A stretch of 64,000 nucleotides of DNA from Marsupella aquatica (Eukaryota > Plantae > Marchantiophyta), in contig OZ316891.1 of NCBI GenBank assembly GCA_973895155.1, forward strand, positions 6,543,708 through 6,607,707, given 5' to 3'. The notes under the pieces are model-generated. The model saw only the letters and a program-made list of their open reading frames with translations, did no database searches and was not told the DNA's origin. Made by a program: the position numbers and the translations under genes. Below, one piece after another: positions 2,287-59,162 of this stretch. Every line of letters starts with the position of its first letter. The stretch's first letter is position 1.

Positions 2287-2341
2287 TATTGGATTATGGA
2301 CTTGTTGCTCAAGTGGACCATATTAGGCTTGAAATTCTAAC

Positions 2342-16800: not shown

Positions 16801-17928
16801 CATTCGAGCCAAAGGGCTTCGAAGCCCAAAGTTGATGTTTGATTGACCACTAGGCGAAATCACCGATGGGAACACGGAATGGGATCCATGGATCCCAACT
16901 CGTATTCGTCCACTTGGACTTCGAAGTGACAGCTGCCCCACTTGTGGTTCTATGGTAGCGCTTGACAATTGACCATTGTGTAAAACAAAGTGGGATCCAC
17001 GGATCCCCTGTCTCATTCCTCCACCCAAAGCGACTAACAAAGTTTGTCCGCTTTGCAATTTGGGCTCAACATTTGGTAAAATTCCAGGAGGGGATACCAA
17101 GTGGGATCCGCGGATCCCCTTCCGCATTCCTCTCCCCGAATCAGCAGGCAATGGTTTTTCGCTTCGCATTTCGGGCTCACCATTTGGTAAAATTCTAGGA
17201 GGGGATACCAAGTGGGATCCACGGATCCCATTTTGCATTCCTCCCACCAAATCAGTAGGCGAAGGTTGCCCGATTTGCAATTCTGGCTCGCCATTTGGCA
17301 AAATTCCAGGAGGGAATACCAAATGGGATCCACGGATCCCACTTGGTATTCCACTAATGGCATTTGGTAGCGAAGGAGATGAAATTGGCAATTCACGCTC
17401 TCCATTCCGCAAACTTCGAGTAGGGATCCCTCTGGGTATTCTTCGTGCGGCTGGCACTTCTAGCACCGTCGAACTTCTCATTCGCTCAAACTGCGATTGC
17501 ACACTAGACAAAGCTATCTGGACTCCAGGAGGACGCGACATTGGGAAAACCAGAGGAGATCTCTTGGCGGGCCTACATAGCAACATTGTTCTTGGCATTA
17601 TAAACCGAGGCCGACGCTTGGGTACATCTGGAGGGGTTCACGGTGAACTAGTCTGACCTAAGGGTATGACAGTGGACTTTCTCCCAAGCAAACGTCGTTT
17701 AAGCGGTTTGCTTGGAGAAACATAATAAGGTGTTGGAGCTCCAACAACACTTCTCCCACACTCGGAATCAGGCCCTGAACTCTCTGAATCTGATGAAAAT
17801 GACATCTCTGGCAAAACTCTTTGTGAGACTGGAAGCTCCTTCATCAAACGAGATGGAATGAATTTTCGAACAACATCTGGCGAAGATGCATCAGAACTAT
17901 AAATAGACTCGTCACCTGAAGACGCCAT
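13835..17928 (-). pseudogene. Sola-like DDE transposase with long low-complexity N-terminus; intron 15438-15542
   Basis: CCDKFC, ICRGGFKKLYSIG, YFLRVWKKKF.NVRIPK..FSTCGPC, CIDSMDQ, LYLQLDNTTRENKN, FLLVGHTHDQIDKMFS; phase-1 GT-AG intron; TGA (from CGA) after the intron and frameshifts near 17620 and 14100. Confidence 0.75.
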
Positions 17929-25300: not shown

Positions 25301-27584
25301 CTTTGACTGCAAGTCCAGATGCAAGGCGACTCCTCTTCTTGATTGCATTGTTAGAGGGCGACCATTTGCCAGAAACCCTGGTGAGGTATTTTTACAAATG
25401 GATTCAACCGGCTCAATCCACAGCTTTCCACAAATGGAACTACGAGAACCAGGAGAAGTACCTGGCAGACAGGTCATTGATTGATTTGCACATGCAAGGA
25501 AATGAGTCAACGTGGGAGAGGATGCCCTACATGCGGGGGCAAAGAACTTTGGCTGGTCATTGCTTGAGGATGCGCTTCATTCGGGAGAGGAAGTCTCTCG
25601 AAGTGCGGTCCATCGCTGCTCAAATATTAAAAAGCAGTAATCAAGGTGGAACTGAACTTATTGAGAAAGGGGACGCAGAGGCAACGCTGTGACTATCTTG
25701 AGTGCAATTTACTTCCAAGAACCGTTCACGGATGTCCTAGTAAATACTCTCGAAAAGCATCGTCGAACAATCTATGATGGCACCATTGCTCGGAGCCTCA
25801 GTACGGGCATCGATCCACATGATCTTGTAAAGATGACAAGGCGAACGACAAGGTACGAAATCAAAGATCTAGTCTGGCTCATTAATGTCGATCGTGGAGA
25901 TCCTGCTTGGAAGCAGCAAGCACATGGGTATGCCAAAAAGGTACGACTGCCTATCATATTCTGCCAAAACAATTCGCCTTCAAATACCATAGTACATATC
26001 TCAGCTGGAAAAAATCAACCGTGATTAGTGATGCACGCAATGTCCAATTCCTTCGTTCTAAATTTTCAGTGTCTGTGAGTAAAATTGAAATCCATACTGA
26101 CTTGATGCTTAACTGGCCTGAGAACACGATTTAAGATTGAAAGGAATAGAAATTATGGAGAATAATGGGATTGCCAGGTCTGCAATCCAAGGTTCGATGT
26201 AGTTCACAAAACCAGAATGCCACTATTAAAGCTATGACAAAGTACACAGTAAACTATGGATCGACTTCGTGTTTCATCTGGTTTCTCCCAATTCAAGCAT
26301 CAATTGTTTACTAATGACACTTACGTTTCCTATTTGGTGATAGATTATTATCAAGCTAGCCTATCAAGGCAAATTGGACGACAACAGTATGGCAAGCTTG
26401 CTTCAACTCCCTCAAACAACCTCAGTTGCATGTGCAGTAGTCAAGGGCTACGGTAATTCCTGGGGTGCTTTTGATGTAATGCCACCATTTTCAAGCGCAC
26501 ATGGCGAGACAATGAATGCTCTGCTCGCTCTCTTGCGTGATGATGGTGCATCAACCACCAGACGAGTTCCTGTAATTGGTGCTCTTCGGGCTGTACTTCA
26601 CTACGAGAGCAAAGATACAATCCTCAGCGTGGCCCCTAAGTGTATGGAACTGCTGGCCATGGATTTCAGTGACTCTACTCTCCAGACTGCTGTAGCGCGA
26701 AGCCTTGAAAGGTATACAAGAGAAACAATTGTAATTGGCGAATTTACTGGAATCTCGGATCTCCTCGTGGCGTTACTAGTCTCCGTAAAAGACTACGAGG
26801 TCCGTATTTCTGCAGGACTTTCCCTTGAGAGCTTATGTCGCTGGAAGTGTGCTGCCCTCAAGGTAGCAGCCATACCAGACGCCGTCGAAAAGCTCTTCAA
26901 TTTGTTCCTCACAACAGTGACACCCTCACAGGTTGCATCCACTGAGCTGGAAAGTCCATTCCTCTGCAATCGGGCAGGATACATATTGATTGAGCTGGCA
27001 TCCGTGGAAGAGAACAGGATCAAATTCCGTACCATCCAGAGCGGTTCATTACATGGCCTTGGAAATATCCTGGCTCGACTCAAGGAAACTTGGCAGGGCA
27101 CTCATAGCGAGCAGCATCGGACAGAATTGATGGAACGAGCTTCTATGGCTGCCGGAATACTGGATCAGCTAGCACGGGACAAGGAGCTGAGACATTCCAT
27201 TGCTTCATTGCCTGGGCTTGAGGAAGGTTTGCTATTCTTGCAACTTATCGAGATTGATACAATCAATGATTACACTTGGGTGTGGCCCATTAATTCTACT
27301 AGGGTGCTTACAAAGCTCTGCTACGCTTCAACAAACCCAAGATTGAGAGACGTACCAACTCTGAAACAACTACAAGCAGTATCTTCTTCTCCAGCGATGG
27401 GAGCGAGGGAATGCTTCGGAATATATTGGAGTCGATTTCAAGTCCATTGTGGAATGGGAGCGTACGAGGAGGCTCTTGAAAACTTGGAACTCGCTCAACT
27501 GCATTTTGACCAGCTCCAGACTCCGGATAGGCTCGGGGTATTGGGAATCGACATAATGGTGATGATGTTCGGTAATATGGCGAT

Positions 27585-30500
27585 TGTTAGATATTGCTAT
27601 AGCCTTGTGACTCATGAGCTAACCATAGTTAGTCTAACTCGGGTTAGGATTAAGCTAATGTTAGCGGTAGTGTTGTTGTGCATATAGCCAGGGCTGATGC
27701 CAGACCCTGGGTGGAACTTAGGCTCATTGTTACGGAGCTAGTTGAGAGATAGGGAGAGCTTGTGCTGTGGATGTTTGGTATGGCCGGTCGGCCTAGAGTG
27801 CAGTAAAGCTCTTGTGTGTTCCCGTGGACGTAGCCTCATGTGGAGGTGAACCACGTATCTCTCTGTGTCGACTATTGTGCGTTGGATGGTTCATGGGCTT
27901 GCCGTTACGAATGTCGTCTATGCTCAACAAGTGGTATCAGAGCATGCCTGGGAGGTGACGAGGTTTTTTCGTGACGGGTTTTCCAGCGTTCATTGTCGAT
28001 GGTACATTAGGAGTTTCGTTGCATGAAACTCGAATGTGTGTGGCTGTACGGATAGGTTAGTGAGAGGGCCTTCTAACGGTGGTTAGAACTCGCTGATTGT
28101 TATCCGTGGTGCGGAGGAATTGAAGTTTGTGTCGTTCATGATTTATTCGTGTTCGACGGTATTTCGGGGGAGAGACCAGAGATCGCGTATTTCAACGGTG
28201 TGAGCTGTGCGATACGGGAGAGATCGCACATTATAGCTCAAAGTGAAGGTTGAAGCGAGCTGGTCATTTTGGTAGCTGGATTGTTGTCGAGTTATTACCG
28301 AGTGTGACGTGACGAGTGACGGAGGCATTCAGGTTTTTTCACAAGCTATGGAGCTTGTTCTCATCTGAATCGGGTTTCCCTTTGTGACGTCTGACTCGGT
28401 GGAAGAACCGCGAAGTGCTACGGCTCAACGGTTTGATCGCGGCGAGCCGGTTGTTTTGAGCCCGGGATTGGCACTTGACGCGGAGTGAAGACGTCACGAT
28501 GAAAAGTTTTACTCTACTTGGAGTTGCAGATTGTACCAGCGCAATTCATCAACTTCACCCATCGGCGGTGGTCACTTTTCTCAAGCAAATGGCAAGGCAA
28601 GAGTGTCATTTTTTGCTTTGAGTGGCAGTTTTTTTTAAGGGTACTATAAGTGATTTTTTCCCCCTTAAAAGCTTTTGCGACACTCAGGAGCGCCGGCGCC
28701 CCTCCCCGGCGCACGGCGTCGTTTCGCCCCCCCTCCGACCCTGTATCAGGCTGCGGATGCCGTAGCTGCTCCGCTGCCATTCCCTGTTCGCCCCTTCATA
28801 CGCCCTGCCCGCATACTCCTGACCTTTATACAGGGTATTTTTGGGTCATAAGGGGCTTTGCACCCCCTTTAGGGCCTTATTTAACCCTTTTTCCCCGGCT
28901 CTTCAAATTGGCTTTCCCGGGACCGGTGACCCGGCGCTTTAACCGCTTCGACAGGGGGAACTGCCCCTGTGAGACCTGTCGGACTGTACGAGAATATTCC
29001 CAAAAAACAGAGAGCTGTTTTTTGGCCGTCCGACAAAGATTCCGCGTGCCGAACGATAACTTTTTTGGTTCTTCTTCGGCGTGGTGGTGGCCATTGGAGT
29101 TAGCAATGCGGCGCACCGATCACATCGCGATTCCGACGACAGGTTGTACTGGGTATTTTGGTTATTCTCCAAGGTGGTTAGAACGGGGGAGTTTCCCAAG
29201 GTTTTACCCACCCCGACCGAAATTTGAATAACTTTTTCGTCAAATTTTGATTGTGATTTCGGCTTTCAGTATTGGACTCCTAGCTTCGTGGGCTACGCGG
29301 TGGTGTTGAGTTTTGAGTTTTATGAGAAGTTTCAAAAAAAGACATTTTTTCGTGATTGTTTCATATGAGTGCCTCGGAGGATACTGGAAGAATTGGCGTC
29401 AGTAGAGCTTCAGGATTGTGAAGATCAGACGGTGAGTCTGAGGAGGAGCTGCTACCGTTTGAGGAAGAACTAGTGTCACCGGTAAGATCACCGGTGTGGC
29501 GTGCAGTGGAGGAAGCTGTGTTACTACCAGAGCTGTCCGTAGTTAAAAAGAAGAGGGAGATGGCTAGATTTGGAGGAGTGAAGTTTGAGGTGGAGAAGTA
29601 CGATGGTCGTATTGATTACTTGCTCTGGGAGAAGCAAGTGAAGGGTGTCCTTCGGGCCATGGGCTTAGCTCATCTGCTCTCTTCGCGAGAGCAGTATGAT
29701 GGAGAAGAGGAGATCTCAGAGAAGCAGTGGAGATAGGAGCAGGTGATTGCTGTCAATGCAATGATGCTATATCTCAAGCCGCACATCATCAAGCAGCTGG
29801 ATGATTATGCGGATTGCGCATCACTATTCAAGGCTCTAAGAGAGAAGTACTACCGGGAAGATGCGTCAGACCGGCTGTACAAGAAGTCTCTCTTGATGAG
29901 CCTCAGGCTCAAGGAAGGGAGCAAGATGCAGGATCACCTGGATGAGTTTGACAGTCTAGCGGTGGATCTGTCAAACCTGGGAAAAGGAGTTGAAGATGAG
30001 GATAAGGCCTTGCTTCTGCTAAGCTCCTTACCGCCGTCATATCAGGGTTTGAAATAGGTGCTCTTGTATAGAGATCTGAAGTCCATTTCATATAATGAGG
30101 TGGTGAGCTCCTTGCTGTCTGATGATGCTCAGAAGAAGTTGGGTCATTCACAGACAGCATCTTCTTCTGGCACTGCGCTGAACGTGAACTGTGGTAGACC
30201 AGCACAGCACTCAAATGGGTAGAATAGGTTTAGATCTACATCACGAGGGAGATCTAAATCCAGAGGGAAATCGCAAGAGAGAAAGCCTCTTGCATGTTGG
30301 AGATGTGGCAAGCAAGGCCACATGAAAAGGGATTGTCGAGTAAAGGATCCTACTGCTTCAGCTAACGCGGCTTCGAGCTCGCATGAGGTAGATTTGCTCG
30401 ATGATGATGACATATTGTGATGCCAAGGTTATGCTCTCAACGTAGTGTCAAATCCAGGTAGTGATGACTGGATTCTAGATAGTGCATGTACTTTTCATAT

Positions 30501-33500
30501 TTGCTCTAGGAGAGATTTTTTCAGTTCTTACACGGTTTCCAACGGGTCAGTGTTGATGGGAAATGGAATCCCATGTCAAGTTGTTGGACTTGGATCTGTA
30601 AGATTTCAGATGTTTGATGGTGCTGTGAGAATGTTGAGGAATGTGAGACATATTCTCAGCATGATGAAAAATCTCATTTTACTTGGAGTTTTATAAGCAA
30701 ATGGCCATCAGTGGAGTTCTGCTAATGGTGTCCTTCAGGTTTCAACTGGTACTAAAGTTGTATTGAAGGGAAAGAGACATAGCAATCTATACGTTTTGGA
30801 GGGCAATGTAGTTTGTGATGAAGCCAATGTAACCTTATCTCATGAGGAGACGGCCCGGCTGTGGCACTTCCGTTTGGGCCACATGAGTGAAAAAGGTTTG
30901 GTTATTCTTCAGAAGAGGATTACTTTCTAATTTGCAATCTTGTAAGTTGGAATTTTGTGAGCACTGTGTGCTAGGAAAGCAGCACAGGAAACCCTTCGGA
31001 GTTGGAACTCACACCAACAAGGAGGTACTTGAGTATGTACATAGTGATGTGTGGGGTCCAGTCCCTACTCCCTCACATTCTGGACGGTTATACTATGTCA
31101 CGTTCATAGACGATTACTCAAGGTATGTGTGGATATACTTTTTACACAATAAGTCTGATGTTTTTGCCACTTTTAAGGAGTGGAAAGCCCAAGTTAAGAA
31201 TCAGACTGGTAATAAGGTGAGATATCTTTGATCGGATAATGGCGGTGAATACAATTCCAGGGAATTTGGAACGTATTGTAAGGAGCAGGGGATTACCCGC
31301 GCGCCATCTCACAACAAGTTATACTCCTCAGCAAAATGGTGTTTCTGAGAGACTCAACCGAACACTATTGGACCGCTCGAGGAGTATGTTGAGTCAATCA
31401 TGCTTACCACATGAATTTTGGGCTGAAGCTCTCAACACTACAGCTTATTTGGTAAATTTTTCTCCATCCAGTTCTATTGGATTCAAGACGCCATTTGAAA
31501 TGAGGTACGGGCGTCCAGCAGATTACTCACATCTGAGGATTTTTGGATGTGATGCTTATGTGCTTACACCTTCCCAGCTTCGATCCAAGCTGGAGTCCAA
31601 GTCGAAGAAGTGCATTTTCCTTGGCTATCAGAAAGGTGTGAAGGGTTATAGGTTATAGGATCCAGTAACCTGTAAGTTAATTGTCAGTAGAGATGTGTCC
31701 TTTAATGAATCCAGATCATCAAAGGAGGGGGAGAGTTCTCAGGACTCCCATACTGACAAGGGGAAATCTCCCATCCCGGACCGGGTTGAGGGGAAGATTA
31801 GTCATGATGCTATTCATGACAGGAGAGATGGAGAAGCTCCGGGCTTGGAGCTGGTTCCTGTGATGGAACAAGAGGAGCAGATTGTTGCTAGGGTACCTCA
31901 AATTCAACCAGCAGCAGTAGATCAGCCTGAGTCATCTACTAGAGGAACTTCCAGTCGTTCTACTAGAGCTCCTACCAGGTATGGTCAATGTGCAGACTCA
32001 TCTAAGCTAGATGATATTGACATTGCATCTGATGATGATGACATGGCTTTGATCTTGGAAGAAGGAGAGTCTTCTTCATATAGTGAGGCTTGTGCTTCAG
32101 AGCAGAAGCATGAGTGGAATGCAGCAATGCAGAGGGAGTTGCAATCTTTGAGTGACAACAAGACATGGGAGCTGGTGGAGCTTCCAAGAGGTCAGCAAGT
32201 GGTGGACAGCAAGTGGATTTACAAGTTGAAGGACAGTCCTTCAGAGGGTGGAGATAAGATCTACAAGACAAGGCTTGTTGCCAAGGGGTTCACTCAGGAG
32301 AAAAGAGTGGACTACAATGAGGTCTTTTCACCGGTGGCTAAGTATTCCACAATTCGGATCTTGTGTCAGCTTGTTGTGTTTTTTAATCTGGTGATGGATC
32401 AGATGGATATTATTACTGCTTTTCTCTATGGCAACTTGGAAGAGATGATCTTCATGAGACAGCCATTAGGCTTTATGAAAAAGGGCCAAGAGAACTTAGT
32501 TTGCAGATTGCTCAAGTCCTTGTATGGATTGAAGCAGTCTACCAGACAGTGGAACAAGCGATTTGATGATTTCATGCTTGCTCAAGGTTTTACAAGGATG
32601 GTGTATGATCCTTGTGTGTATACGAAATCAGTCAAGAATGATGTATTTGGTTTCATCATTCTGGTGATCTATGTGGATGACATGTTGATTGTGGCTAAAG
32701 ATCAATCTGAGGTTGACAGTCTCAAGGCGAAATTGAGTGCTGAATTCAGGATGAAGGATCTTGGTAAGGCCAAGAGGATCTTAGGGATGGAGATTTTTTG
32801 GAACTCTGATACTTGACAGTTGTGCTTGAGTCAAGGCCAGTATGCGAGGAAAGTACTTGCACGATTCAACATGGAAAATTGTAAGCCAGTTCCGAGTATT
32901 CCTTTAGCTTCACATTTCAAGTTATCATCGGCTTTCTCTCCTACGGATGCTATGAAGAAAGGTCTGATGGCTAAGATTCCTTATGAGAAGGCAGTAGGTA
33001 GTCTGATGTATTTGATGACTTATACTAGGCCTGACTTGGCCCTAGCGATGGGCAAGGTTAGCAGATTCATGTCAAATCCAGGGAAGGTACATTGGGAAGC
33101 TGTGAAATGGATTCTCAGGTATCTCAAGGGTACCCAGGACTATGGATTACTATTTTATAACAGATCAGATAGAACGTTGGTTGGCTATGTAGATTCTGAC
33201 TATGGAAGCTGTCTGGATACAAGGAGGTCTACAACTGGGTTTGTATTTACTCTTGGAGGAGGATGCATCAGTTGGAAATCTACCTTGCAGAAGTGTATAT
33301 CTCAGTCTACTACAGAAGCAGAGTATGTTGCAGCAGCAGAAGCAGCAAAGGAAGCAATTTGGTTGGACAAGTTAATTGCGGAGATGGGTTTAGAGCATGG
33401 CAAAATGACTCTAAACTGTGATAGTCAGAGTGCTCTTCACTTGGCTGCTAACCAGGTGATGGATAGCAGGGTGAAGCACATTGATGTCAGGTACCATTTT

Positions 33501-34193
33501 ATCAGGCAAGCAATGTCTGATAAAACTTTTGAGCTAGTCAAGATTGATGGAAAACTCAATCCCGCTGATGCCTTTACCAAGGTGATTCCTTTGGAGAGTT
33601 TCTCAAGACACCGTGCTACTTTGCAGGTTTTGCAGTTGTAGTGCAAGTAGAGTTATTTAGCAATGTGTGACTATTTGTATATGGATTACTCATTCCTGTT
33701 TGGCTACGGCTTAGTTCTAGTTAACCCTTAGTTAACCCTTGTGGTTTTTAGGGGGAGACCTGGTTTGGTGATTGTCTAGAACTTCCCGCTGAGGATTCCA
33801 TATGGTAGCATTTAGTCTAGTCCCCAAGACAAGAGTCAAGGGGGAGTTTGTTAGATATTGCTCTAGCCTTGTGACTCATGAGCTAACCACAGTTAGTCTA
33901 ACTCAGGTTAGGACTAAGCTAATGTTAGCGGTTGTGCTGTTGTGCATATAGCCAGGGCTGATGCCAGACCCTAGGTGGAACTTAGGCTCATTGTTACGGA
34001 GCTAGTTGAGAGATAGGGAGAGCTTGTGCTATGGATGCTTGGTATGGCCGGTCGGCCTAGAGTGCAGTCAAGCTCTTGTGTGTTCCCGTGGACGTAGCCT
34101 CATGTGGAGGTGAACCACGTATCTCTCTGTGTTGACTATTGTGCGTTGGATGGTTCATGGGCTTGCCGTTACGAATGTCGTCTAAGCTCAACA
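27585..34193 (+). mobile_element. Full-length Ty1/copia LTR retrotransposon, decayed
   Basis: 345-bp LTRs 27585-27929 and 33849-34193 (TG..CA, about 12 differences by eye); PBS TGGTATCAGAGC at 27932; PPT before 33849; TSD gcgat/acgat. Confidence 0.97.
29560..33641 (+). pseudogene. Copia gag-pol (gag, CCHC knuckle, protease, integrase, RT, RNase H) with many stops and frameshifts
   Basis: KFEVEKYDG, CWRCGKQGH, WILDSAC, HSDVWGP, TPQQNGVSER, LYGLKQS, IYVDDML, SQSTTEAEY, KHIDVRYHF. Confidence 0.96.
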
Positions 34194-45800: not shown

Positions 45801-46133
45801 GGTTAGAGAAGCCTTAGATTAGTTGAGTTGCATTGTATTTAGAGATTTAGTGGACTTAGATGCACACCTACAATGGATAGTGGCATTCTACTTAAGATTT
45901 TGAGTTTGCACAAACTCAGATCAAAGACCGTAAATTTTATGTTTGTAATTAAGTATGGATTTGTTGTTTTTGGTAATTGTGAAAATGATGTTGAAAATAT
46001 CCCAAGATTTTCATTGAAAGAATTATAATAGCAAAGTTCACAAAACATGTTTCATTTTTATATGTTTTTTTAAAGCACTTTTGGAAAAATCATGAAAATC
46101 TTGAAAAAGGAATTCGGGCCTTGGACTCATCCC
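42814..46133. mobile_element. ~3.3-kb non-autonomous insert with degenerate GGG-start TIRs, flanked by TTAA
   Basis: TTAA at 42810-42813 and 46134-46137; TIRs agggtgagtaacaagcccaaactc vs rc gggatgagtccaaggcccgaattc (16/24); outer-CACTA motif (g/t)tcatattggaca resumes after it; internal TTCATGAATTCATGAA-type palindromes. Confidence 0.5.
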
Positions 46134-47319
46134 TTAAGGCTCCATGTTCATATTGGACAAAAATTCATGTCATTCAATAGATTTGTTGAATGAAACCCTA
46201 AAGAGACATTCTATACCTAACAAATCTAATTGACATTCATACAAGATACATCCTTAAGTTCCGCAATAATTATTCAACTCAATGCAAATTTATGAAGCAA
46301 AATGACATTGAAAAAAAGCATACACGTAATATTATTAGATGTATAATTGTCAAGTGCTACAATTTGAAATATCAACAACTCTTAATATCTGTAGAAAAAT
46401 AGAGTTGTCATTCTCATTCTACAAACCTATTTCTATCATGTCTATTGCTTCTTGGCTCATGGCTGCTTATACTACTGTTTGGCTGTTTCTATTGTTTCTT
46501 GAGCAATCTAAAGTTCCACAGGGCACTCATCCCCTTCACATCAGATAACTTAGACTAGTTCTCCCCTGCATTAGCAAATGATAATGCCACATCTACAAAC
46601 ACTTCAATCACAATGTCAATACTGTTAATTGTGTCACACTACAACACTACCCACACCTTTTGCGAACTTGAAAGCATCGCAAACAACAAAGGAAATCAAA
46701 AAACAAAACTTGCCTTTGCGAAGTATCGCGCATCGCAATAGAATCGCAAACTGCGAAGCCCAAAGGTTCGCATCCGGTCTTTCGCAAGACCTTCGCAACG
46801 CCTTCGCAACTTGCGACACTAATAGAATCGCAAAGGACTCACATTTAAGCGACTCCGTGGGCGTCGCGAGAGGCTTGCGATAATAATCAAGCAGTTAAAT
46901 ATTTGCAATCCCAAAAGTTTGGTAATCGGTTTGCGATATTAAGTTAATGGTAGTTATGCCATGAACATGGCTTCACATTTATGTGAACGTATGTGGTTTG
47001 CATAATGTTTGCGATACCTTCAATATGGTAAATATGCGAATTGGGTTGTTCGCATAGGTTTCGCAAGATGTCTTGAGGCTAGGGTTTAGATTTAGAGTTT
47101 TGAATTATGGTTGGGTTCTTGTCGTCCAACACGGAGAATGAGGTCTGAATCAAAATTGCTTTATAGAAAATTGATAGGTACACAAAAATTAGGGTTTCCT
47201 AAACCCTAAACCCTAGATGGGTGTCATATGACAAGCTAGGTCCCTATAAGACTACCCATATCAAAACTATATACTACACTAAGTAAATAGGCATCCCATA
47301 GGCACTACACCACCAAGCT

Positions 47320-49296
47320 CTAGAATGGGGTCCTCCTACTCCTTGTCGCCGGCCTCTTCCCCTTGTCCCTCTTGCGACGATCCGGACGTGGCACAGGAGG
47401 TGGTGCTGGCTGCTCCTCCACATCTGGTTCCTCCTCGTCCTCGTCCTCATCCTCTTCCTCCCCCTCCTGCTGGGAAACTCCTCCTACTGGTCCAGATCCA
47501 CTACTCCCTCCTACCTTGGGCCCCTTTGTCGTGGTCCCCTCATTGTTCTCATCGGTGCTGCTGGTATCACTGGCATCCTCATCATCCTGTTTGCACAGCA
47601 CAACGCCAAATTGGTTTAGGTTTACGGAATGAAAAGATAAGTGGATTGGGTGGGAAAAACTGAAGGGGATACATGCACTTACAGTCGCCAACTCTGCGTC
47701 AACCAAGTCAAAGAGATGTTTGGCTCCATGCGCAGCTCCTATCTCCATCTCTTTTGCTGTTATCTTCCTGCGGTACCTCTTATACTACCACAACCAAACA
47801 TTCCAAAACCAAAATAGATCGAGGTTAATATGCTATAAACCCAAGAAAAATGCATGGAGGTGCTAATAGGGTGCCCCCTAACACAAAACTGGGCTCAATA
47901 ACCCTTAGCGGTTTTTTTAAAACATAATACACACTTGCGAAACTCCCCACTTCGCAAATTCAAATAAATTGGCTGTTTGCGAAGTAGTTTGCAAAGCGAG
48001 TTATTTCGCAATAGCTTCGCATTTACAACTTTAAAAAATGCCATGATAGACTTTGCGAAACATTTGCGAAGCAACCCGCATCGCAAAAACTTCGCAAACT
48101 CTGTTTTTAAAAAATTCCGAGAAATCTCTAAGGCACGCAATGTGTCAGGGTGACCTAAAGTACAAGACAGGCCGTAAGAAAGAAACAAGAGGTATGCAGG
48201 GGGGGCATTGCAGGTTTGGATAGCAATTGAAAGCAAGGAAACAGAAGCAGGGGAGGAGAGGAGAGGGCCCACTCACAAAGTGTGCTTTGAGGCCGGGAAG
48301 TCCACCTTGGCCCATCTTGTGCGTGGTCTTGGGCCGTTTGCTGACTCGCTCAGCTGCAAGGATGAATTTTTGGGGTGGTGCACCCACTTCATCCACAATG
48401 TGCTGCATGTGAGACACTTTCTCAGCCATTGCCTTGAGCTCTCGGTCGGACTTCCCGGCCTTCTGTGCCTTGGCTTCCATCTCCTTCCAGAAGAGAAGGT
48501 TCCTGGAAGCTCTCATCTGCACCTCCACTTTGTAAAAGGCATTCCACACGTCCTCAGTGAATTGCAGTGGCCTCCTCACGTTTCTGTACTCCTCCAAGTT
48601 TGCCAGGTAGGCCCTTACCTTCTTCCTATCATGGTACCGTGCTTGAGACATTGAATTGGAAATTCTATCTGCAAGCCACTGTTCATCAATCTCTGCTCCA
48701 TTTTGAAATGAATCTTTGATTTGACTCATTACTTTCTTCTGGTCTGCCTTGCTGAGTTTCCCCCACTCAACTCCTCGTGCAAAATTGGAGCGCACCATAA
48801 GCCTGATAGTGCTCTTTGCCCCGGTGTAGGCCAGTTCAGTAGGAATGCCTTTGATCAAGGCAATCATAGGCAGCTTCTTCCTCTCTTCCTCCTTCTTTCG
48901 CTGCTCCTCCCGCTGTGCTCTTATCTCATCTCGTTCCTCTCTCCTCCTCTTCTTTTCTAGGGCAACAGGTGAGACTACTCCTGCCTTGGCCCTCTCCTCC
49001 TTCTTACGCTTCTTCTCTCTTGCCTTCTATTGAGCTGCACTCCTTTGCTCCTCCTCCCTTGCAATGTTCCCTACATCTACTCCCGTTTGCAAGGCTTGCC
49101 CAAGGATTGCACTCAAAGAAGCAATCCCTGCTGGTGTAGTCAAATCTAAGTGGCTCAACTGTGCTGCATTGAGGTGCTCAGCCATCAAATCGGTCCATCG
49201 ATTCCTCTCCTGCTCCCCATTGCCTTCATTCCCATTGCCACTCTCACTCACCCCTGCCCTATCACCTCCATTTGCTCCACTGGAATCCATAGCCAA
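47320..49296 (-). pseudogene. CACTA second gene (TnpA/Ptta-like accessory protein), spliced, premature TAG at ~49027
   Basis: PLQFTEDVWNAF and HKMGQGGLPGLKAHF followed by a GTGAGT donor; acidic C-terminal exon; divergent from the transposase. Confidence 0.55.
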
Positions 49297-50565
49297 GCCA
49301 CCCCCCGAGCGCGCGTGAGCTCCCTTCTCCCTCCCTACGCTTGAAATTTGTCAAATGCCGCTGAGTACGCCGCGGCCGAGTGCAAAAGTACAAGCGGGAA
49401 AGACTTGCGAAGCAACCCGTTTCGCATATAGTTTCTCAATTTTGCAAAACCATTGCGACGTGAAAGGCTTCGCAACACCTTCGCTCTCTCGCAGAAATGC
49501 TCTCGGGCTCTGTTTTTCTGAAGGTCTTGCGAAAGCAATAGCTTCGCAAACTTCAATTCTAATTTGTGATGGTATTTGCGAAGGAAGCGGCTTCGCAAGA
49601 CATTGGCAACTCGTCCTGGGGGAATGTTGGTTTCATTTGAAAGGGTTTTTTTCAAAGGTGAAGTGGACCCCTCTATACTCATATTTGGAATGCTTTTTGG
49701 CCATGTTTTGGGTGTTAGATAATAGTTGAAGGCGGGTTTGAAGGGTTAGGCAGATTTCAGGTTAATGGGTTATGTATGGTGTTGGTTTAGGCTAAGGTTT
49801 GGGTTTACATTAGTTTAGAAGAAATAATAAAGGTGTGGGATTTGGTTTACAAGAAATAAGTAAGGTTTGGGTTTAGGGTTTTAGGGTTTGGGGTTTTTTA
49901 ATAGAAAGGTCTCTAGGGTTGAAGAAAGGTTTGGGTTTGTGTGTAAGTCAGATTTAGGTTTAATAGGTAGGATGCGGTTTGGGGTTGAAGGTTTGGATAA
50001 GACAAAGCAAGGTTTCATGAGATTTATATTGCAACCTTTTGGGTTTAAGAGAGGTTCATTGGGTTTATGAATCAAAAGGGGATTGGCATGGGTTTTGCTA
50101 ACAAAGGAGGGGAATATATGATAGCTTGCAAGGTGCGGCACTTTTTGATGATTTGATACTATTGCATATGCATTGTGAGAGCCCGGGCATCTGAAAGGTA
50201 AACATTGCATGATCGGCTAAAGTGTTCCTTTCATGTACTTAACACTTTTGGTTGCCACTATGTATAAAGGGGACATGTATATAGGGTTTTTTGTTCTTGT
50301 CTGGTCTAGATTATTGTGCTTACATATACATGGAATGGTTGCAGCTTTTCCCTCATACTTTCAGATTGGGTTCATTAATTATCTTAGAGCCACAAGAGAT
50401 ATTGGCACTGCTGAGCCCGGGTCTCATAAAGGTACCTTTTTTATTGCTATGGTCATTTTGGTTTGGGTTTCTTGTCATCATTATTTGGGAACTTTGATTT
50501 ATATCATTTTGTGGTATGTTTTGGTCATAACATGCCCATTTTAATTATATCTTGTTACAGGGGAT

Positions 50566-51717
50566 ATGTCTTCATCTTTTGAAATCTCCACCACAGACTC
50601 GTCCTCCTCTAATGAAGATACACCACCTCCACCTCAACATCACACGACCGCACCTCCTCCTCGCGGTCCACCCCGTCAACTTTGTGAATGTTCCAGATGT
50701 GTGGGTCAGGTTTCCCAAAAATCTTACATATGTGCCCAACATATTGAGAGATATGGGCGTTGTGGACGTCATACGGCAGGGGCTTCTTCATCTCATATGG
50801 TAAGTGTTATGCCTTAGTTTTCCTACCCTATTCCCATTACTCAATGGTTGAAGGTTTGCAATTTCACACCTACTTTTGTTTGTTTTGGTTTCGGTGGAAT
50901 AGGTATCCAATAGGCCTAGACCTGCGGCACAAGCACCCTATGTCCCATCACAAGGTGTTCTAGATGCTATAGGCAATGCATTCTCAAAAGCCTTGGGTCT
51001 AGCGGCAAGGCCCACCAGTCCTAGGGAAGTTGGGGTTGAGGCTATTGTCCCAAGAGGGAGAAAGCGTTCCAAGAGGCGGGCCCGAGGGGATACTGATTTG
51101 TACAAGGCAGTGGTTACGGGTCGGTGGGGTGATTGTGAGTTCACTAGCAGATGTGTCCCTATCATCAAGGACTGGGATCCTGAGACTCTTGGTTTGCCAC
51201 AACAGCTTTCCTACGGTGCGGAGGTAGAGGTTTGGGGTAGACGTTGGGTTATCAAACCTTCCACACTTGGGGATAGACATGGCTATGGAGTTTTTGCCTG
51301 TGAGGACATCATTGTGGACGTCGAGAGTGGTAGAGGTGGACGCGGCCGAGAGGGGCCTACTTTGTTTCCTTATGGTGGACCCATCTACAAGAGAAGACAT
51401 TGGAACATGATCCTTGCACAACACCCTGAGTGGAAGACTTATGCATTGGACATGGATACTTTTGATGGTAACACTAGAAGGTATAGTGAGCAGCGTGTCA
51501 TAGATGGGGACCCCATACGGACTGGGAATATTGCTAGTTTCATAAACAGTACCGTGGGGACTCGCCCTAAGCGTAGGCAAAATTGTGAGTGGGTTTTCAT
51601 TGAGGTCCTCCGCCAGCACCTTATGGCCAGACATATCATCATGACCATTGCCTAGTTGTAGCAACAAGGACCATTAACTTAGGGGATGAGTTATTTACTC
51701 ACTATGAGTGGGATTAG
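50566..51717 (+). pseudogene. SET-domain lysine methyltransferase-like isoform (exon 1 50566-50799 + exon 50903-51717), 1-nt deletion near 51605
   Basis: IKPSTLGDRHGYGVFACEDI, YGG.IY, YAL, IDGD...GNIASFINST, NCEWV; after the shift LVVATRTINLGDELFTHYEWD* (ELxxxY motif). Confidence 0.8.
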
Positions 51718-54700
51718 GGTTAAGTTAAGGGTCATAGGTGGTATGTTGCATATCAAAGGGCACTACATATGGCCTTTGGCCACATTTTGTATTTGCACCA
51801 CAACCAATATTATTTCATTTTTGCACACCCCTAGCCCATTTTTGTGTGTGTTCTCTTTGCAATATAACTTTCAATTGTTTGCTTTGTTTTTAGAATGTGC
51901 GACCCTCTCCAAATATGTTACCACGGAGATTGAGAGCAACATATCGAGAAATGGGTATGCCAGAAGAAGGACATGGATCAGAGTCACACTCCTCATCAAG
52001 TGCTAGTGGAAGCAGTAACCCTGATGAAGAGGTACCTCGGACGGATGAACAAGTAACTGATGACCAGGATAGAGCCATGGATGACTTTATGGTTGATTGG
52101 TTTGGTGCCAACAACCTTGGTGATGACCTTCCCAATGAAGGGCAGGTGCCCCCCAATGATCCACGCCCAAGGCATACCCCTGAGGGACAACGCCAATGGG
52201 AAGAAGCAGAGGAACATGCCCGAACACCTATCTATGAGGGTGCTCGTTTGAGTCGTCTTTCAGCCATCTTGGGGTTGATGAACCTACAGGCCAAACACAA
52301 TGCAAGCAATGCCTTGTTATCTGATATGTTTGCACTTTGCCATGACCTTATGTTGCCCACTGAGAATGTGTTGCCAGCAACTTGGAAGGAGGCAAAGAGT
52401 GTTCTCTCATCTATTGGCATGGAATATCATATTGTTCATGCATGTGTGAATGATTGCATGTTATTTCATGGGGCCAATGCAAACATGACACAATGTACAA
52501 CATGTGATGAGCCTCGCTATGACCCCAACATGCTAACAAAGAAGGTGCCAAGGAAGGCTGTTCGTTGGTTTCCCATCATTCCTCGGTTGTTGCACATGTA
52601 TCGGTGTTCTGACTTGGCAGAGTTGATGGTATGGCATAAGATTCATCGACCAGAGTCTGGTGTCATGCGGTTGCCAGTTGACTCCCCTGCTCACAAACAT
52701 ATTGAGGCAACATGGCCAGACTTTGCACATGATCCTCGCCATGTGAGGCTAGGATTGGCATCTGATGGAGTTAGCCCTCATTCACTTGGAGGAAAGGGGC
52801 AACCTACATCAGTTTGGCCTGTGGTTGTCATGAATTATAACCTCCCACCATGGCTATCCATGAAGAAGGGGTTCCTTTTATTGTCTTTGATTATCCCAGG
52901 TCCAAAAAAGGTGAAGAACTTTGACACTTACTTGGCACTATTGGTTGGAGAACTTCAAAAATTATGGAATGGAGTGTGGGCATATGATGGCAGGAAAATT
53001 ACAGGAGGTTTTCCACGTGTCTTTCAATTGAGAGGGATCATTTGTTGGACAATGCATGACTATCCTGGTAAGATGACTTCCATGCCATTTGCAACCCTTC
53101 AATAATGTGTAGTTCCTATTGATGTTTCTCATGTGACAACCCTAACATAAAGTTTGCATGGTTTGATTTCTTCTATGTAAGCAGGGTTTGGTTTTGTCTC
53201 TGGATTGCAAACTCAGGGGTACAAAGCTTGCTCTACTTGTGGCCCAAGCTTAGAGGACATGGCCACATATTGTTCATGGATTAGAAAGATTGTTTATATT
53301 GGGCATACAAAGTTTCTTCCCATGGGGCATGAGATGAGGTTTGACCCACTTCTATTCTCCTCCTTTGACATGCCATTTGGTGATGAGCGTGAAATTCCTG
53401 ACGCAACAAGTTTTGCACATTGGAAGTCACTAGCTAATAGGGTGGCAGACCCAAATGATTCCTTCACCTTTGATAGGACAGGTTTGACCAGGTGGAGTAT
53501 ACTAGCCACTTTGCCCTATTGGTCTGAGTTGAAGATCCACCATCTTTTAGACCCCATGCACATAGAGGGAAATGTGGGGAAGGCTTTGATAAAGCATTTT
53601 TATGGGGAGAAGGACACTAATTTTAGGGAGGCATGCGAGGAGATGGAAATGCATCCAGATGTTTGGGTGACAATTGATCCTATCACAGGTGTGGAGAATC
53701 GTCCTTCTGCTCCTTGGGTGTTGAGTGTTGGCCAAAGACGTGAATTTCGGAACCGTATAGGAGAGATGCGGTTTCCTACAGGCTATGGTGCCAACCTTCG
53801 AAAAGCTTTTGGGATGGAGGACAATCACAAGTGGCCACGATATCTGAAGACACATGACTATCATCGCCTATTGCAGCATATATTGCCAGTGGCAATTATA
53901 GGTATAGGGAGTGAAGAAGTGCAAGATGCCATCTGGTCATTGGGTCGTTTGTTGAGATGGATATGCTCAAAGGAGATATATGTAGAAGAGATCCCTGGGA
54001 TGGAGGTATTGGCAGTTGAGGTGGTATGCAAGTTGGAGAAAGCCCTTCCTCCTTCCTTCTTTGATTGTCAGGTTCATTTACTTGTGCATCTTGTGCGGGA
54101 GGTTGCCATTGCAGGTCCAGTGCATTGTAGATGGATGTATTGGCTTGAGCGTTACATGGCGATGTTGAAGGCTTATGTACGTAACCGTGCACGGGTGGAG
54201 GGAAGCATAGCTACAGGATACTTGGCAGCATAGAGTATGTTTTATTGTAGTAACATCTTGGCCACCATTGATCCTACTTGTCCACGTACTTGGATGGAGG
54301 AAAGAGAAGAGGAGGAGGACCGTTTAACAGGTGCCACAAAAACAAGCATGTTGACATCAACAGAGTGGTCACAGTTGACAACATTTATGTTGAGTAATAG
54401 TAATATCATGGAGAAATGGAGAGAGTTTTATGAGAATGCCAAGAGAACAAGTCAAAGAGCAAGAATTTTTCCTAAGATGCATGAGTATATGAAGCAAAAG
54501 TTGCTTGAGTTGGATGACATGGTGACACAAGGAGGAGATGTGTCCCACTTTCCTACCATCACAGATGACGTTCGGACCATTGTTCATGGCCCTTTGAGAG
54601 TGGTGACATCCAAGACGGCTATGTGGACACAAGGGAGACACTTCAGGTCCACTAGTACCTAACCTTTCTTCCTCTATTAATTCATGTAGACCTTATTTTG

Positions 54701-55384
54701 ATTAGTTATTTCTATTGTTTAAAAACTTTCTATTATTATTAATGACATCTATAACTGTAATGTTGGCTTCTATATTTATGCCATAGGCCATGTGGGTTTT
54801 GGCTATTTAGGGATGGGTGTCATATTTTGATGATTATTACATTAATGGTATCTTTTACAGTGTAATAAAAATTTGTGGGTTTTGTTAATTTTAGGGTTTC
54901 TTCCCTTGATGAGAAGAGGGGTCGTACTTTTGATTGTGGAGTTCAAGGGGAATTTTCTCAAGACTCCAGAAGCAGCCGCCATGACAGGAACATTGTTCGA
55001 GATGTTGTGCCACACTATGGGAAGATAGAGGAGATCTTGGTGGTATCATATGACAACCATTCAAAGTTTGAGGAATATGTCTTCAAGTGCAAGTGGTTCA
55101 AAGTGAACCTTGTTGGTCAAAATTGCACTGTACTTCAAGATGAGAGTGGGTTTACACGGTTGAAGACAAGTGCCACTAGTGTTCAAGCATCTCATTGGCA
55201 AACGTCAGAACCATTTTCTTTCCCATCACACTTGGAGCAATGTTTCTACATTCCATACCCCTTAGACATCGAGTGGTCAATTGTCATCACCTATGTGCCA
55301 CGTTCTCGTTCCATTGTTTCTGAGAAGCCAGATGTTATTGTATCAGACCTAGATGACCTTGAGGCCGATGAGGACCAAGTGTGA
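50566..55384 (+). pseudogene. CACTA TnpD-type transposase; exons 50566-50799, 51894-53067, 53185-54646, 54895-55384; stop at 54231
   Basis: CECSRC...HIERYG N-terminal motif; HACVNDC, RLGLASDG, YNLPPW, HDYPG, LDPMHIEGN, LKTHDYH, FFDCQVHLLVHL, WMYWLER, YGKIEEI, FKCKWF. Confidence 0.93.
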
Positions 55385-56936
55385 GGGACATATTTATATG
55401 CACTTGGGTCCAGCCTAGACATTTGTTCATGTTTGGTGATATAAAAAAAAGGATTGTCTATATTTATATTTGCCATTCACTTTTGAATGAATCATACTCA
55501 TGACATATGTATTGTATTGTTTTATTGTGATCACTTGTGAATTTTACATGCAACTTTCTATCTAACCTCTGTTGCTCAATATAACTTTATTTCCTACTTA
55601 TTCCATAATTTTCATTCTCACCCTCGTGTTTCCCTCCTCCGTGGTACGTCTGTCCCTCCTCCTCCCTTCCTCTTTCTCCTCCCTCCTTCCTCTTCCATTG
55701 TACTCCCTCCCTTTTCCATCCTTCATTGTACCTCCCTCCATCCTCCCTTCCTCTTCCCTCCTGCCCCATCCATATATTGGACCATCCACCCTTTTCATTG
55801 TCTCACCTCACAATAACCTTAATTTTTAGTTTGCGAACAATTTGCAAAGCTCACAAACTCTCACCGGACTCGCAATTTATATGAAGCTTCTCGTTTCTCA
55901 ATATTTCCATACTACACTCTTCGCAAACTTGTGAAGCAAAATAAATCACAAATTTCATATTTTCAGCGTTTCGCAAATCTTCCATCCTCCGACATTCTTA
56001 AACTTGTCAAACAACTACTATCGCAAAACATTTTCAATCCAATATTCTTCGCAAATATTTACATGAGTTAGTTTCGGAGTCGGCGAGCAATTTTTCCGTC
56101 TTCGGAAGGTGCCTTTCCATTCGACGCATTTCGGTAAAAATTGCAAAACCACTTACTTCGCAATTTATTAGCGATATAATGCGCTTCAGCTATTATATTT
56201 GCGATAGGGATAGAATCGCAAATTGCGATGCGGGTTGATTCGCAAAATATGCAAAGCGCCGCCCATCGGAAATACAAGAGCGTCGACAAAAATACCTTTG
56301 CAAAAGTGTCAAATATGTTGTAGTGTTAGTTGGTCTTCCGTGCAACACACGAGGCTCCCCTAAAGATGCTCTCATAAAACACACAAGGAAAATGCATAAA
56401 CAAACTATAATCACCAACAAGATATAATCACACTAGAAACATGAACGAACATTATAAACATACAATGACATATATACACCACAATAATTACATTAAATAG
56501 ACAGTGAATACATGATAGAGAATTTTACCTTCATTATCACTAGAAACAATAAGAGATCATTTTCTACTATCGAGCTTGGAACTTGTGCGATACTAGAGTG
56601 ATGTGCCATCCATGTAGTCATCATGCTTGCCAACTCCTTCACAATGGCTTTCAATTCATCGACATCCAATTGCACAGCCCCAATGGTAGTGATCTCTTCT
56701 TTTGAATGTGGGGTCTCTAAATGACTCACAAACCAACTCAACATTCTCACTGTCAAACTAACAAACTTGAATGTGGGGTCTGTAAATGACTCACAAACCA
56801 ACACAACATTCTCACTGTCAAACTAACCAACAACTCAACATTCTGTCAAATAGAAAATGATGTACAAATTAGATTGGAATGACAATACTCACAGCTGATC
56901 CATGTCTGTACCTCGCACCAATCCATGTCTGTACCT

Positions 56937-59162
56937 CGCACCATAGATGCTGTCGCCAGTCTTCTTCCCGTCACTACTTTTGCTCGTGGATAGACTTGAT
57001 GTCTCGATCAAAAAACTCTTGAGTCTCTACAATGCCTCCTCTTCACCTCCTACCAGTAGAGCCCCTCCGTATGGAGTACTTTTCTCCTGCTTAGCAAGAA
57101 TGTGAAAACTCAATGCCAGGCATTCAAATCAAGTTGAATTCTCTCTAAATGGGAAGTCAATGATAACGCTAAATCGCCCCTAGGAAAGGGCCACTCTTAT
57201 GAGTTGAGTCTAACATTTTTCCCTTTCTCCCTCAGATATATCTGTGAGAGAGGTTGTGGGGTGAAGAGACAATCCGACTTCACTCGCTTCACACCTTACT
57301 TAAACCAAATACTCCAGCTTAGCCAAGTACAAATCTAAAATCAACTCCCAACAGGAAGTGGCAAAGAAAGATCACAAAAGCCACCCTTTCCGGTGTTGAA
57401 AACAAGGTTAAGAGGTGAAAAATGCATCTGGAGCAGAAAACGCAGAACTCCTCAGGGGATATAGAGAACAATACTAACCTGAAGACCATTAAGAGTCTGC
57501 AGTCTACACATACATTAGGTTCTCACCAAATTCAATAGACACAAATCTAACAAAAAGAAGACTACAGTCGGCACGTGATTATGTTTGGTGCAAAATTGTC
57601 TTACTACGAGAGATAGGAATAATTTTCCTCACAAGTCCTTTTAAGGTTTAAGTGCGCTGTAAAATATAATGTCACGCATGATCCTCCCCTTCATGAAGGA
57701 AACAACATAGAGACCTAGAACTGCAATATTGTATACAGAAAAGTCTCCATATTTGCAGCTATGCATTGATTGAATGTGAGTGGTACGCGTTTCAATTACC
57801 TATGGCGATCAGTAACTTACAGAAGTTGGAACTTGTTTGAAACTTAAGAAAACACAAAAGAACTAGTACTTGGGGGAAGAAGGGATAGGCACCTCCACCA
57901 TCCCCATTGCATTCCCCATCCTGTTATATTCGTAATACTAATACAGATTCTTGATTGGGTTGGTCTATATCTTTATTCAAATTCACCTTGCCCACAGCAA
58001 CCCAAGGGTTTGAAAGTTAACATAGGTTTTACCATGCCCAAGATCCTGAGAGAAGCACAGATAACACGACAAAACTCCAATCACATGACTCGAAAAATAT
58101 GCTCTTGCTTACTAACGGGTGAGGGCTTCACGTTCAAACACAAACAGATCCTCAGCTAAAAAATGAAACATAATTCGATGAGATTGGTGAGTAGATGATG
58201 CCATTGTCTCTTAAACAAATGAGACAATATAACTTACTGGTCGCTTGGCAGAAGTTGGATTCAATCCTAGGTCTTGAAGGGATGGAATATCTCCAGCCTT
58301 GACGCTGCCACGATTAGGAAACCCTTTCAGCTGCTTGGCAGCAGGTATAGTAGCTCTCACTTCCAATTGCTGTACTTTCTCTCTAAAGCCACCATAGTTG
58401 GAAGGCATTTCGTCCAGCTTGAACGGAAGGTCATCAATGTGGAACAAGGTACTTCCCCAAAAGAATTTTGGGTCCACTCCTTTCTCCTTCAGTGCAGCAG
58501 TGACCTTCGTGATCTCGGCAACCATCTCCTCGATAGCCACTTCTCGGTGAGCGTAAAGGGCATCGGCTCCAACACTCTTTGCTAGCGTGACTAACACCTC
58601 CTCGGGCTTCCCAATTCTCACGATCAGCTCCGAGCCTCTTTGCCTCAAATTCTCTCACAATTTGGCCACAAATTCCAAAAGAAACTTAGCTCTGTATGGG
58701 CCGGTTTTGTCGAATCCCGATGACGATTTTCCATAGTCACGAGGATCAAAGCAGTAGATGGGGAGAATTGACACAGATTCATTGCTGGCATTGACCAGAG
58801 CCTCATTGTTGTGGACACGCAGATCGTTCCTAAACTAGACAATAGTAGCCCTTTGCAGGCCAGCGGGGTTCTTGGGTTCCCCCAAAATTGCGATCCCTGA
58901 GCCTTTGGTACTCTGGAAATGGGGAGATGAAGCTCGCAAGCTTGCTGCCATTGTGCACACTCTGAAGGGGGGCAGTGGCAGCCACCAGCACCTTGGCGGA
59001 GCCCACAACAGGGCTGGGATTCAGAGCGCTCCTGGAAGACGTGTCCGCTGGCTTGGCAAACCCCACCTTCTTGGCTTTCGATGATGATTGACCACCAACA
59101 GCCAGGTTGACAAGATGAGTCAATGGAGGGACAACAACATTGAGAGAAAGCACGGAGTCCAT
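56937..59162 (-). pseudogene. PHR2: Captured 5' fragment of photolyase/blue-light receptor PHR2 (exon 1 ~59162-58238, exon 2 57086-56937, truncated)
   Basis: IV*FRNDLRVHNNEAL, CFDPRDYGKSSSGFDKTGPYRA, FFWGSTLFHIDDLPF, MPSNYGGFREKV; exon 2 LVGGEEEAL*RLKSF...DSIYGA; stops and frameshifts. Confidence 0.85.

Follow-up and report, generated by a model that had tools for sequence, protein, structure and literature searches.

CACTA (En/Spm) transposons can draw two proteins from one gene: maize En/Spm and Arabidopsis EN/SPM3 are reported to produce TnpD and TnpA by alternative splicing, the TnpA of Spm3 is described as having anti-silencing activity, and TnpA-like proteins are reported in flowering plants only (PMC13547354; 10.64898/2026.08.24.746577). 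VANC of VANDAL elements is another element-encoded factor proposed to act against silencing, in elements with repeated motifs (10.1101/2025.02.11.637652; PMC12730594). SET domains, for their part, have been described as cargo of red-algal Plavaka elements of the EnSpm superfamily, in PAG2 (10.1101/2025.02.11.637652), of HarbingerS and oomycete MuDR elements (PMC12730594) and of Helitrons that captured them (10.1101/2025.02.11.637652, a Bostrychia preprint); passages of PMC11982613 and PMC4158355 add nothing on SET cargo. Here, we analyse a CACTA element in a 64,000-nucleotide stretch of the liverwort Marsupella aquatica (contig OZ316891.1, positions 6,543,708 to 6,607,707; 'the window'), in which a SET exon is nested inside the transposase gene, after its first coding exon and before the rest. 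On balance, we favour a reading in which alternative 3′ splicing of this bryophyte gene yields either the transposase or a predicted lysine methyltransferase, which would likely mark chromatin to the benefit of the element.

An earlier, sequence-only reading of the window had proposed this arrangement and regarded SET domains as unusual CACTA cargo. We found no description in the literature of a SET exon in a bryophyte CACTA element or of the nested, exon-sharing layout, although Repbase Reports and preprint supplements, including a survey of 962 Spm protein structures, may hold one. As far as this literature goes, the nested layout is new for land-plant CACTA elements; SET cargo itself is already known from several transposon groups, the EnSpm-related Plavaka included, so that the earlier reading put its novelty somewhat too high.

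A CACTA element with a nested SET exon

The element spans 9.7 kb (46637-56325 of the window) and is a member of the CACTA (En/Spm) group by its ends, target duplication, subterminal repeats and Tnp2 transposase. Its CACTA..TAGTG-type terminal inverted repeat is perfect over 10 bp (at 46637 and 56325), and the target duplication has 3 bp (TCA/TTA) with one mismatch, which CACTA criteria permit (10.64898/2026.08.24.746577). We compared it with 36 related metagenome loci, which represent, besides the window, only two lineages (locus L003 and a cluster mostly 91-98% alike); four of them, L006, L013, L034 and L036, have the identical element start, CACTACAACAAC. TTGCGA/TTCGCA motifs number 47 in the 1-kb bins of 46001-50000 and 55001-57000, as against 3 in the remaining bins of 40001-64000. 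The transposase matches PF02992 (E = 7e-39), followed by DUF4218 and DUF4216, and its C(2)C and H(3-4)H motifs could be located. Head to head with it stands an accessory gene that is 50-61% identical in related loci and has no match in Pfam or the PDB.

The window copy carries one frameshift, in the SET exon, and two premature stops. One of these, a TAG at 54231, interrupts the transposase where 4/4 relatives have Glu or Lys; the other, at 49029-49027, interrupts the accessory gene at a place through which L030 is open, with a frame of 405 codons. Given these lesions and the mismatched target duplication, the window copy is a decayed, dead member of a family that keeps open SET frames elsewhere.

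The SET exon and its predicted product

The SET exon reaches its stop (51715-51717, after GDELFTHYEWD) only when a frameshift of one base near 51603 is passed. In 4 of 8 runs compared, contigs carry one additional base at 51603, so the frameshift is specific to the window copy, and the SET-like exon with a stop of its own at 51717, as read earlier, is recovered once the frame is repaired. In the hidden Markov model search suggested with that reading, the two halves of the window exon match PF00856 weakly and under the cut-off (E = 0.16-0.21 and 0.031), and 27/28 aligned relatives match it at E ≤ 0.1 (best 7.5e-8), among them P0002 with 29.3 bits for a cut-off of 22.4. PF00856 is the sole Pfam match of full-length relatives, and the element holds no DNA methylase.

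Modelling indicates that the exon encodes a SET fold. For P0002, an intact relative, an alignment of 97 diverse sequences produced a model with a predicted local distance difference test (pLDDT) score of 94, as compared with 44 from 28 close sequences. This model matches Set1/COMPASS with a Z-score of 12.1 (root-mean-square deviation 2.6, 124 aligned), SET7/9 with 11.6, SET8 with 11.4, LegAS4 with 10.9 and EZH2 with 11-12; Foldseek likewise returns SET structures, and the atlas matches of P0002 are streptophyte (0.98) and basidiomycete (0.96) SET clusters. At the sequence level, the top PDB match is LegAS4 (E = 1e-8, the next being 3e-4), and single-sequence and narrow-profile PDB searches returned no match.

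The hallmarks of SET domains (GxG, the invariant Asn, and ELxxxY with its final Tyr) are present in the family. Among the 97 diverse relatives, the motif-I Gly is conserved in 81/81, the Asn in 87/96, the Glu in 78/80 and the final Tyr in 75/79. The His of the RFxNHS/NHS motif is replaced by Ser throughout the family (94/96 relatives), which does not argue against activity because active LegAS4 also lacks it; LegAS4 is reported to methylate lysine 14 of histone H3 (H3K14; 10.64898/2026.05.29.728679). The domain had been called minimal: the lack of pre-SET and post-SET cysteines holds, the protein ending 3 residues past the Tyr, as does the Ser, but about 50 residues that are folded and specific to the family extend it in front, and full-length relatives have a basic stretch upstream of the domain. 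From motifs and fold, we consider it probable that the protein is catalytically active as a lysine methyltransferase. The residue two before the final Tyr is small (Ala, Thr, Cys or Val, not Phe/Tyr). Under the Phe/Tyr switch rule of SET enzymes, a small residue there points to di- or trimethylation, which suggests that this product would di- or trimethylate.

The exon is not a host-gene fragment, in line with the earlier reading, which saw no recognisable fragment of that kind in it. Host lysine methyltransferase families (SUVH, ASHH, ATX and CLF) gave no close match (E ≥ 3e-4), and their pre-SET and post-SET cysteine clusters and family domains are absent. Scans that reach close relatives only found none in viral contigs (0/37 candidates) or prokaryote genomes (0/17 candidates). 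Viral fold matches (phaeovirus SETs, E = 3e-7) are no better than cellular ones, so that they speak neither for nor against a viral origin.

One first coding exon and two acceptors

The first coding exon runs from the ATG at 50566 over 78 codons to a phase-0 donor, 50799 followed by GTAAGT, and two acceptors, AATAG before 50903 (SET) and TTTTTAG before 51894 (transposase), are both in phase 0 with it; these coordinates and phases agree with the sequence-only reading. What that reading called exon 1 has the right boundaries and is only the first coding exon: upstream of its ATG lie an acceptor (50560) and two donor-like sites (50198 and 50432), which suggest that untranslated exons precede it. 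Its Cys/His motif is likely zinc-binding, judging from the residue pattern. An atlas lookup with this exon returned nothing.

Conservation of the splice sites argues for both joints. The donor GT is kept in 18/18 loci that have the first coding exon, the SET acceptor AATAG is in phase in 15/18, and an AG stands at the position of the transposase acceptor in 20/22. In 4 loci, the spacer that follows the SET stop has 45-49% identity with the window, compared with 45-46% for shuffled controls, and so is at chance level. Identity is 63-70% in the first 30 nucleotides of the transposase exon as compared with 45-49% immediately upstream. The seven codons ahead of the first Met of this exon are kept as protein (NVRPSPN versus NIRPSED), which calls for an upstream phase-0 exon. 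Within 50566-51717, the only strong donor is that at 50800; four other GT sites were flagged, which are weaker and, being in phase 1 (from Cys/Ser-Glu codons), cannot join a phase-0 acceptor in frame. Apart from 50800, we found no strong or in-frame donor conserved inside the SET exon. Placed end to end, the first coding exon and the three transposase exons make a frame of 1119 codons that a single premature stop interrupts.

The SET joint, 50799-50903, is present in gene models of Sphagnum and Calypogeia, which are predictions and attach the first coding exon to SET only. One S. fallax model is exactly as long as its coding length plus the intron and so gives no support for untranslated regions. 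The claim that the first coding exon is shared by splicing thus stands as far as the conserved sites and the 1119-codon frame carry it, but among 13 hits we found no annotated protein that joins this exon to the transposase. We judge it probable that alternative splicing makes the exon common to the SET and transposase forms.

Distribution and selection

The order of accessory gene, first coding exon, SET exon and transposase recurs in related loci: the transposase lies downstream of SET in all 19 loci with room for it, and the first coding exon upstream in all 17. This layout, together with the PF00856 matches and the confident fold, upholds the proposal of a conserved, element-encoded SET domain. 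A search with the SET exon returned 50 proteins near its length and 6 longer ones; those with names come from Sphagnum species and Calypogeia, the nearest being from Calypogeia fissa (82%). A profile search collected 138 clusters of SET relatives at 50% identity, 20 of which were looked up, with six named entries from Riccia sorocarpa, one from Calypogeia and one distant model from Ginkgo. Three Riccia gene models put a distant SET relative immediately before Tnp2, so the link between SET and Tnp2 is old. By these sequence matches, the SET-bearing CACTA family is found in a moss (Sphagnum) and in liverworts (Calypogeia and Riccia).

At least two of the SET models belong to orthogroup OG_7564, for which 90 genes are tabulated in one Sphagnum species, 44 in a second and 2 in Pseudotsuga, and none in the other 33 of 36 tabulated genomes, including Marchantia, Physcomitrium and Ceratodon (PMC9946827). 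Six of the 12 members looked up span more than 4 kb, so they need not all be SET-only models.

For 11 of the 36 loci, we estimated the ratio of non-synonymous to synonymous substitution (dN/dS) against the window by the Nei-Gojobori method, the seven-codon comparison being too short to weigh. The SET core gives 0.19-0.29, the core of the first coding exon 0.14-0.21 and the transposase exons 0.09-0.17. By this measure the SET exon is under purifying selection, and the check across copies and species that had been suggested earlier comes out in favour of a maintained gene, with relatives in Sphagnum, Calypogeia and Riccia. In a tree built from 76 of the 97 family members, the closest relatives group with Calypogeia and Sphagnum rows; the tree includes no host, viral or bacterial outgroup and so gives no origin.

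The SET exon (50903-51717) stands at a smaller synonymous distance from Sphagnum-type loci (0.7-0.8) than the transposase does (51894-54646; 1.1-1.5); exchange of the exon between families and extra constraint on it are possible readings. Among distant relatives, P0153 from Calypogeia has two CCCH-like fingers and a weak DUF5763 match, and P0212 is the Ginkgo model.

A proposed model and its alternatives

In the model that we favour, one promoter region would drive the accessory gene leftward and the SET/transposase transcript rightward. The donor at 50799 would either join 50903, giving a protein of about 350 residues, predicted to be a lysine methyltransferase and ended by the stop of the SET exon itself, or skip to 51894, giving a transposase of about 1120 residues. 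CACTA transposases of plants usually carry an N-terminal zinc domain, and the Cys/His exon would supply such a zinc-binding N-terminal domain to both products. The basic stretch before SET could serve as a nuclear signal and DNA contact; the SET form would then enter the nucleus and, close to the element, add methyl groups to a histone lysine, which would promote the element's expression or mobility, with the countering of host silencing as the most likely role of the mark. Targeting might proceed through the Cys/His exon or, speculatively, through the accessory protein, a candidate binder of the TTGCGA/TTCGCA repeats. More tentatively still, and with doubt prevailing, an old bryophyte CACTA lineage may toggle by splicing between its transposase and a histone methyltransferase of its own, unlike host families, which writes a protective mark, possibly an unusual one such as the H3K14 methylation of LegAS4, on its own copies.

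Several observations weigh against this model. PF13963, the transposase-associated zinc domain, has no match in the first coding exon, and its sole link to the family is a weak match in the Riccia relative P0132 (E = 0.031, below the cut-off). No fusion of the first coding exon to the transposase occurs among the 13 hits of a search of longer proteins with that exon, and neither joint (50799-50903 or 50799-51894) is among those listed for 8 of 15 runs, whose contigs look DNA-like and are hence silent on splicing. Gene models are mutually inconsistent, with P0053, P0078, P0136, P0161 and P0166 fusing SET to the transposase, and the distant relatives P0056 and P0097 have the Cys/His motif and SET within one unbroken frame. 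Expression of one Sphagnum copy is tabulated as near zero (0.069 in the control and 0 in seven conditions; PMC9946827 Table S6). Only 7 of the 18 fully covered SET cores are open, the other 11 being broken, as is to be expected because transposon families hold many dead copies. Finally, the Z-scores single out no SET subfamily.

This last point leaves room for a different function under the same splicing: the SET protein could act on a non-histone protein (the transposase, the accessory protein or a host silencing factor), write a repressive, self-limiting mark or bind histone tails without catalysis. The substrate is not readable from a fold that matches H3K4, H3K27, H3K36, H4K20 and H3K14 enzymes about equally, and the NHS His and post-SET cysteines are missing. 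Yet the residues of the cofactor site and channel are conserved across clusters less than 50% identical, LegAS4 is active without the His, and the basic stretch precedes the domain in full-length relatives; we take such a function to be unlikely, though not far-fetched.

The first coding exon could also belong to the SET gene only, with the transposase, starting at the Met eight codons in, made from another transcript, either one in which 51894 follows an untranslated exon farther upstream or a bicistronic one. That Met is conserved (MLP), donor-like sites lie upstream, and the annotations, as well as P0056 and P0097, tie the Cys/His exon to SET alone. Against this stand the conserved acceptor phase and pre-Met codons, and a transposase so made would miss the N-terminal zinc domain usual in plant CACTA elements, the PF13963 evidence for which is weak here. 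We regard this route as improbable. A SETMAR-like SET-transposase fusion as the main product, by way of a donor inside the SET exon, is what the five fused gene models would imply, but these differ in their junctions, most are without the C-terminal ELxxxY motif or some other part, the stop of the SET exon is kept and a conserved in-frame internal donor is absent, so that we give it very little credence. That the exon is a captured host fragment decaying neutrally (Pack-CACTA) or a feature of the window copy alone, as its broken frame here and in 11 of the 18 covered relatives might suggest, is ruled out, to our minds almost completely, by dN/dS far below 1, by the spread of the family over a moss and two liverwort groups with 138 clusters at 50% identity, and by a Sphagnum orthogroup memberless in 33 of the 36 tabulated genomes (PMC9946827).

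Features of the element and its surroundings

Coordinates of the element's features are collected in Table 1. In Sphagnum-type elements, the transposase has an extra intron of about 150 nucleotides (2627-2774 of L001), as compared with none in the window element (at about 53780).

Table 1. Features of the CACTA element, in window coordinates
Feature	Position	Strand	Basis or remark
Left terminal inverted repeat, CACTACAACA	46637..46646	+	flank TCA
TTGCGA/TTCGCA subterminal repeat cluster, left	46659..47070	.	motif counts
Other TTGCGA/TTCGCA clusters	~47930-48100, 49400-49610, 55830-56290		near both ends and around accessory gene
Accessory gene, no family match, head to head with SET/transposase unit	47323..49290	-	ATG 49290, first exon to ~48277
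Later accessory-gene exons	near 47784-47680 and beyond	-	related loci
First coding exon, Ser-rich at its start, with C-x-C-x2-C-x16-H at 50683-50742	50566..50799	+	sequence; dN/dS 0.14-0.21
Predicted intron, first coding exon to SET exon, GT..AG, 103 nucleotides	50800..50902	+	111-118 nucleotides in relatives
SET exon with own stop	50903..51717	+	motifs, PF00856, fold of relatives; frameshift in window copy
Basic stretch of SET exon, resembling a nuclear localization signal	51050	+	sequence
GxG of SET exon	51281	+	sequence
FPYGGPIY of SET exon	51365	+	sequence
GNIxxFINS of SET exon	51524	+	sequence
NCEW of SET exon	51581	+	sequence
GDELFTHYEW of SET exon	51682	+	sequence
T-rich spacer: predicted 3′ untranslated region of SET form and intron end of transposase form	51718..51893	+	unconserved save final AG
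Transposase exon, PF02992 Tnp2	51894..53067	+	catalytic-type Asp motifs: first 52758, second 53052
Transposase exon: C-x2-C 53229, HLLDPMH 53541, DUF4218, WLERY 54141	53185..54646	+	Pfam and motifs
Last transposase exon, DUF4216	54895..55384	+	Pfam
Right terminal inverted repeat, TGTTGTAGTG	56316..56325	-	flank TTA

The rest of the window holds further repeats and genes. At 4523-5829 (+), a frame for an N6/N4 DNA methylase (PF01555, E = 7e-7) stands directly before one for a Ulp1 protease (PF02902, E = 4e-11), and a 428-codon frame without family precedes both at 2333-3619; this is possibly another mobile element with DNA methylase cargo. Two long frames at 14098-17637 (-), one with DUF7869 (E = 4e-44), are likely a further DNA transposon. 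An NB-ARC gene whose long C-terminal part looks helical lies at 23748-27687 (+), and a Copia-type reverse transcriptase, with a next frame that has an in-frame stop, at 31659-33641 (+). Between 43704 and 45641, TTCATGAATTCATGAA palindromes and a 33-nucleotide inverted pair 1.9 kb apart likely mark another repeat element. A host gene of photolyase/cryptochrome type (PF00875) adjoins the CACTA element at 58211-59084 (-).

Comparison with known systems

Transposon SET domains were so far listed in oomycetes and red algae; to these is now added a family from land plants, some of whose members are intact, with a structural model of high confidence and with tractable hosts. As a new and divergent branch of SET domains, the family lends itself to studies of substrates, and it accounts for dozens of Sphagnum 'SET domain' gene models as likely transposon cargo, in genomes of which CACTA elements are reported to make up 6.8% (PMC9946827).

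The element resembles En/Spm in its CACTA ends, its Tnp2 transposase and the second protein predicted from one unit. It differs in that TnpA is a helix-turn-helix DNA binder, whereas the second product of the bryophyte element has a predicted SET fold, and in its additional head-to-head accessory gene. In red-algal Plavaka, PAG2 is a separate gene with SET fused to an N6-adenine DNA methylase; the bryophyte SET is a stand-alone exon nested in a PF02992 transposase gene. The SET genes of HarbingerS, MuDR and Helitrons are transposon-borne too, but in other superfamilies and hosts, and the likeness drawn here is one of description. LegAS4/RomA (PDB 5czy, 8sr6 and 8swi) shares the GN-x-x-x-YIN-x-S pattern without His (YINFS), the lack of post-SET cysteines and a basic N-terminal stretch, yet it is a Legionella effector with ankyrin repeats, only 22-29% identical, and a direct evolutionary link or common substrate is unsupported. 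VANC is not described as a histone-modifying enzyme, and anti-silencing by the bryophyte SET protein is a proposal only. In the sources cited here, the plant anti-silencers described so far, VANC and TnpA, regulate by binding DNA; a lysine methyltransferase carried by the element itself, if that is what this family makes, would be a direct writer of chromatin.

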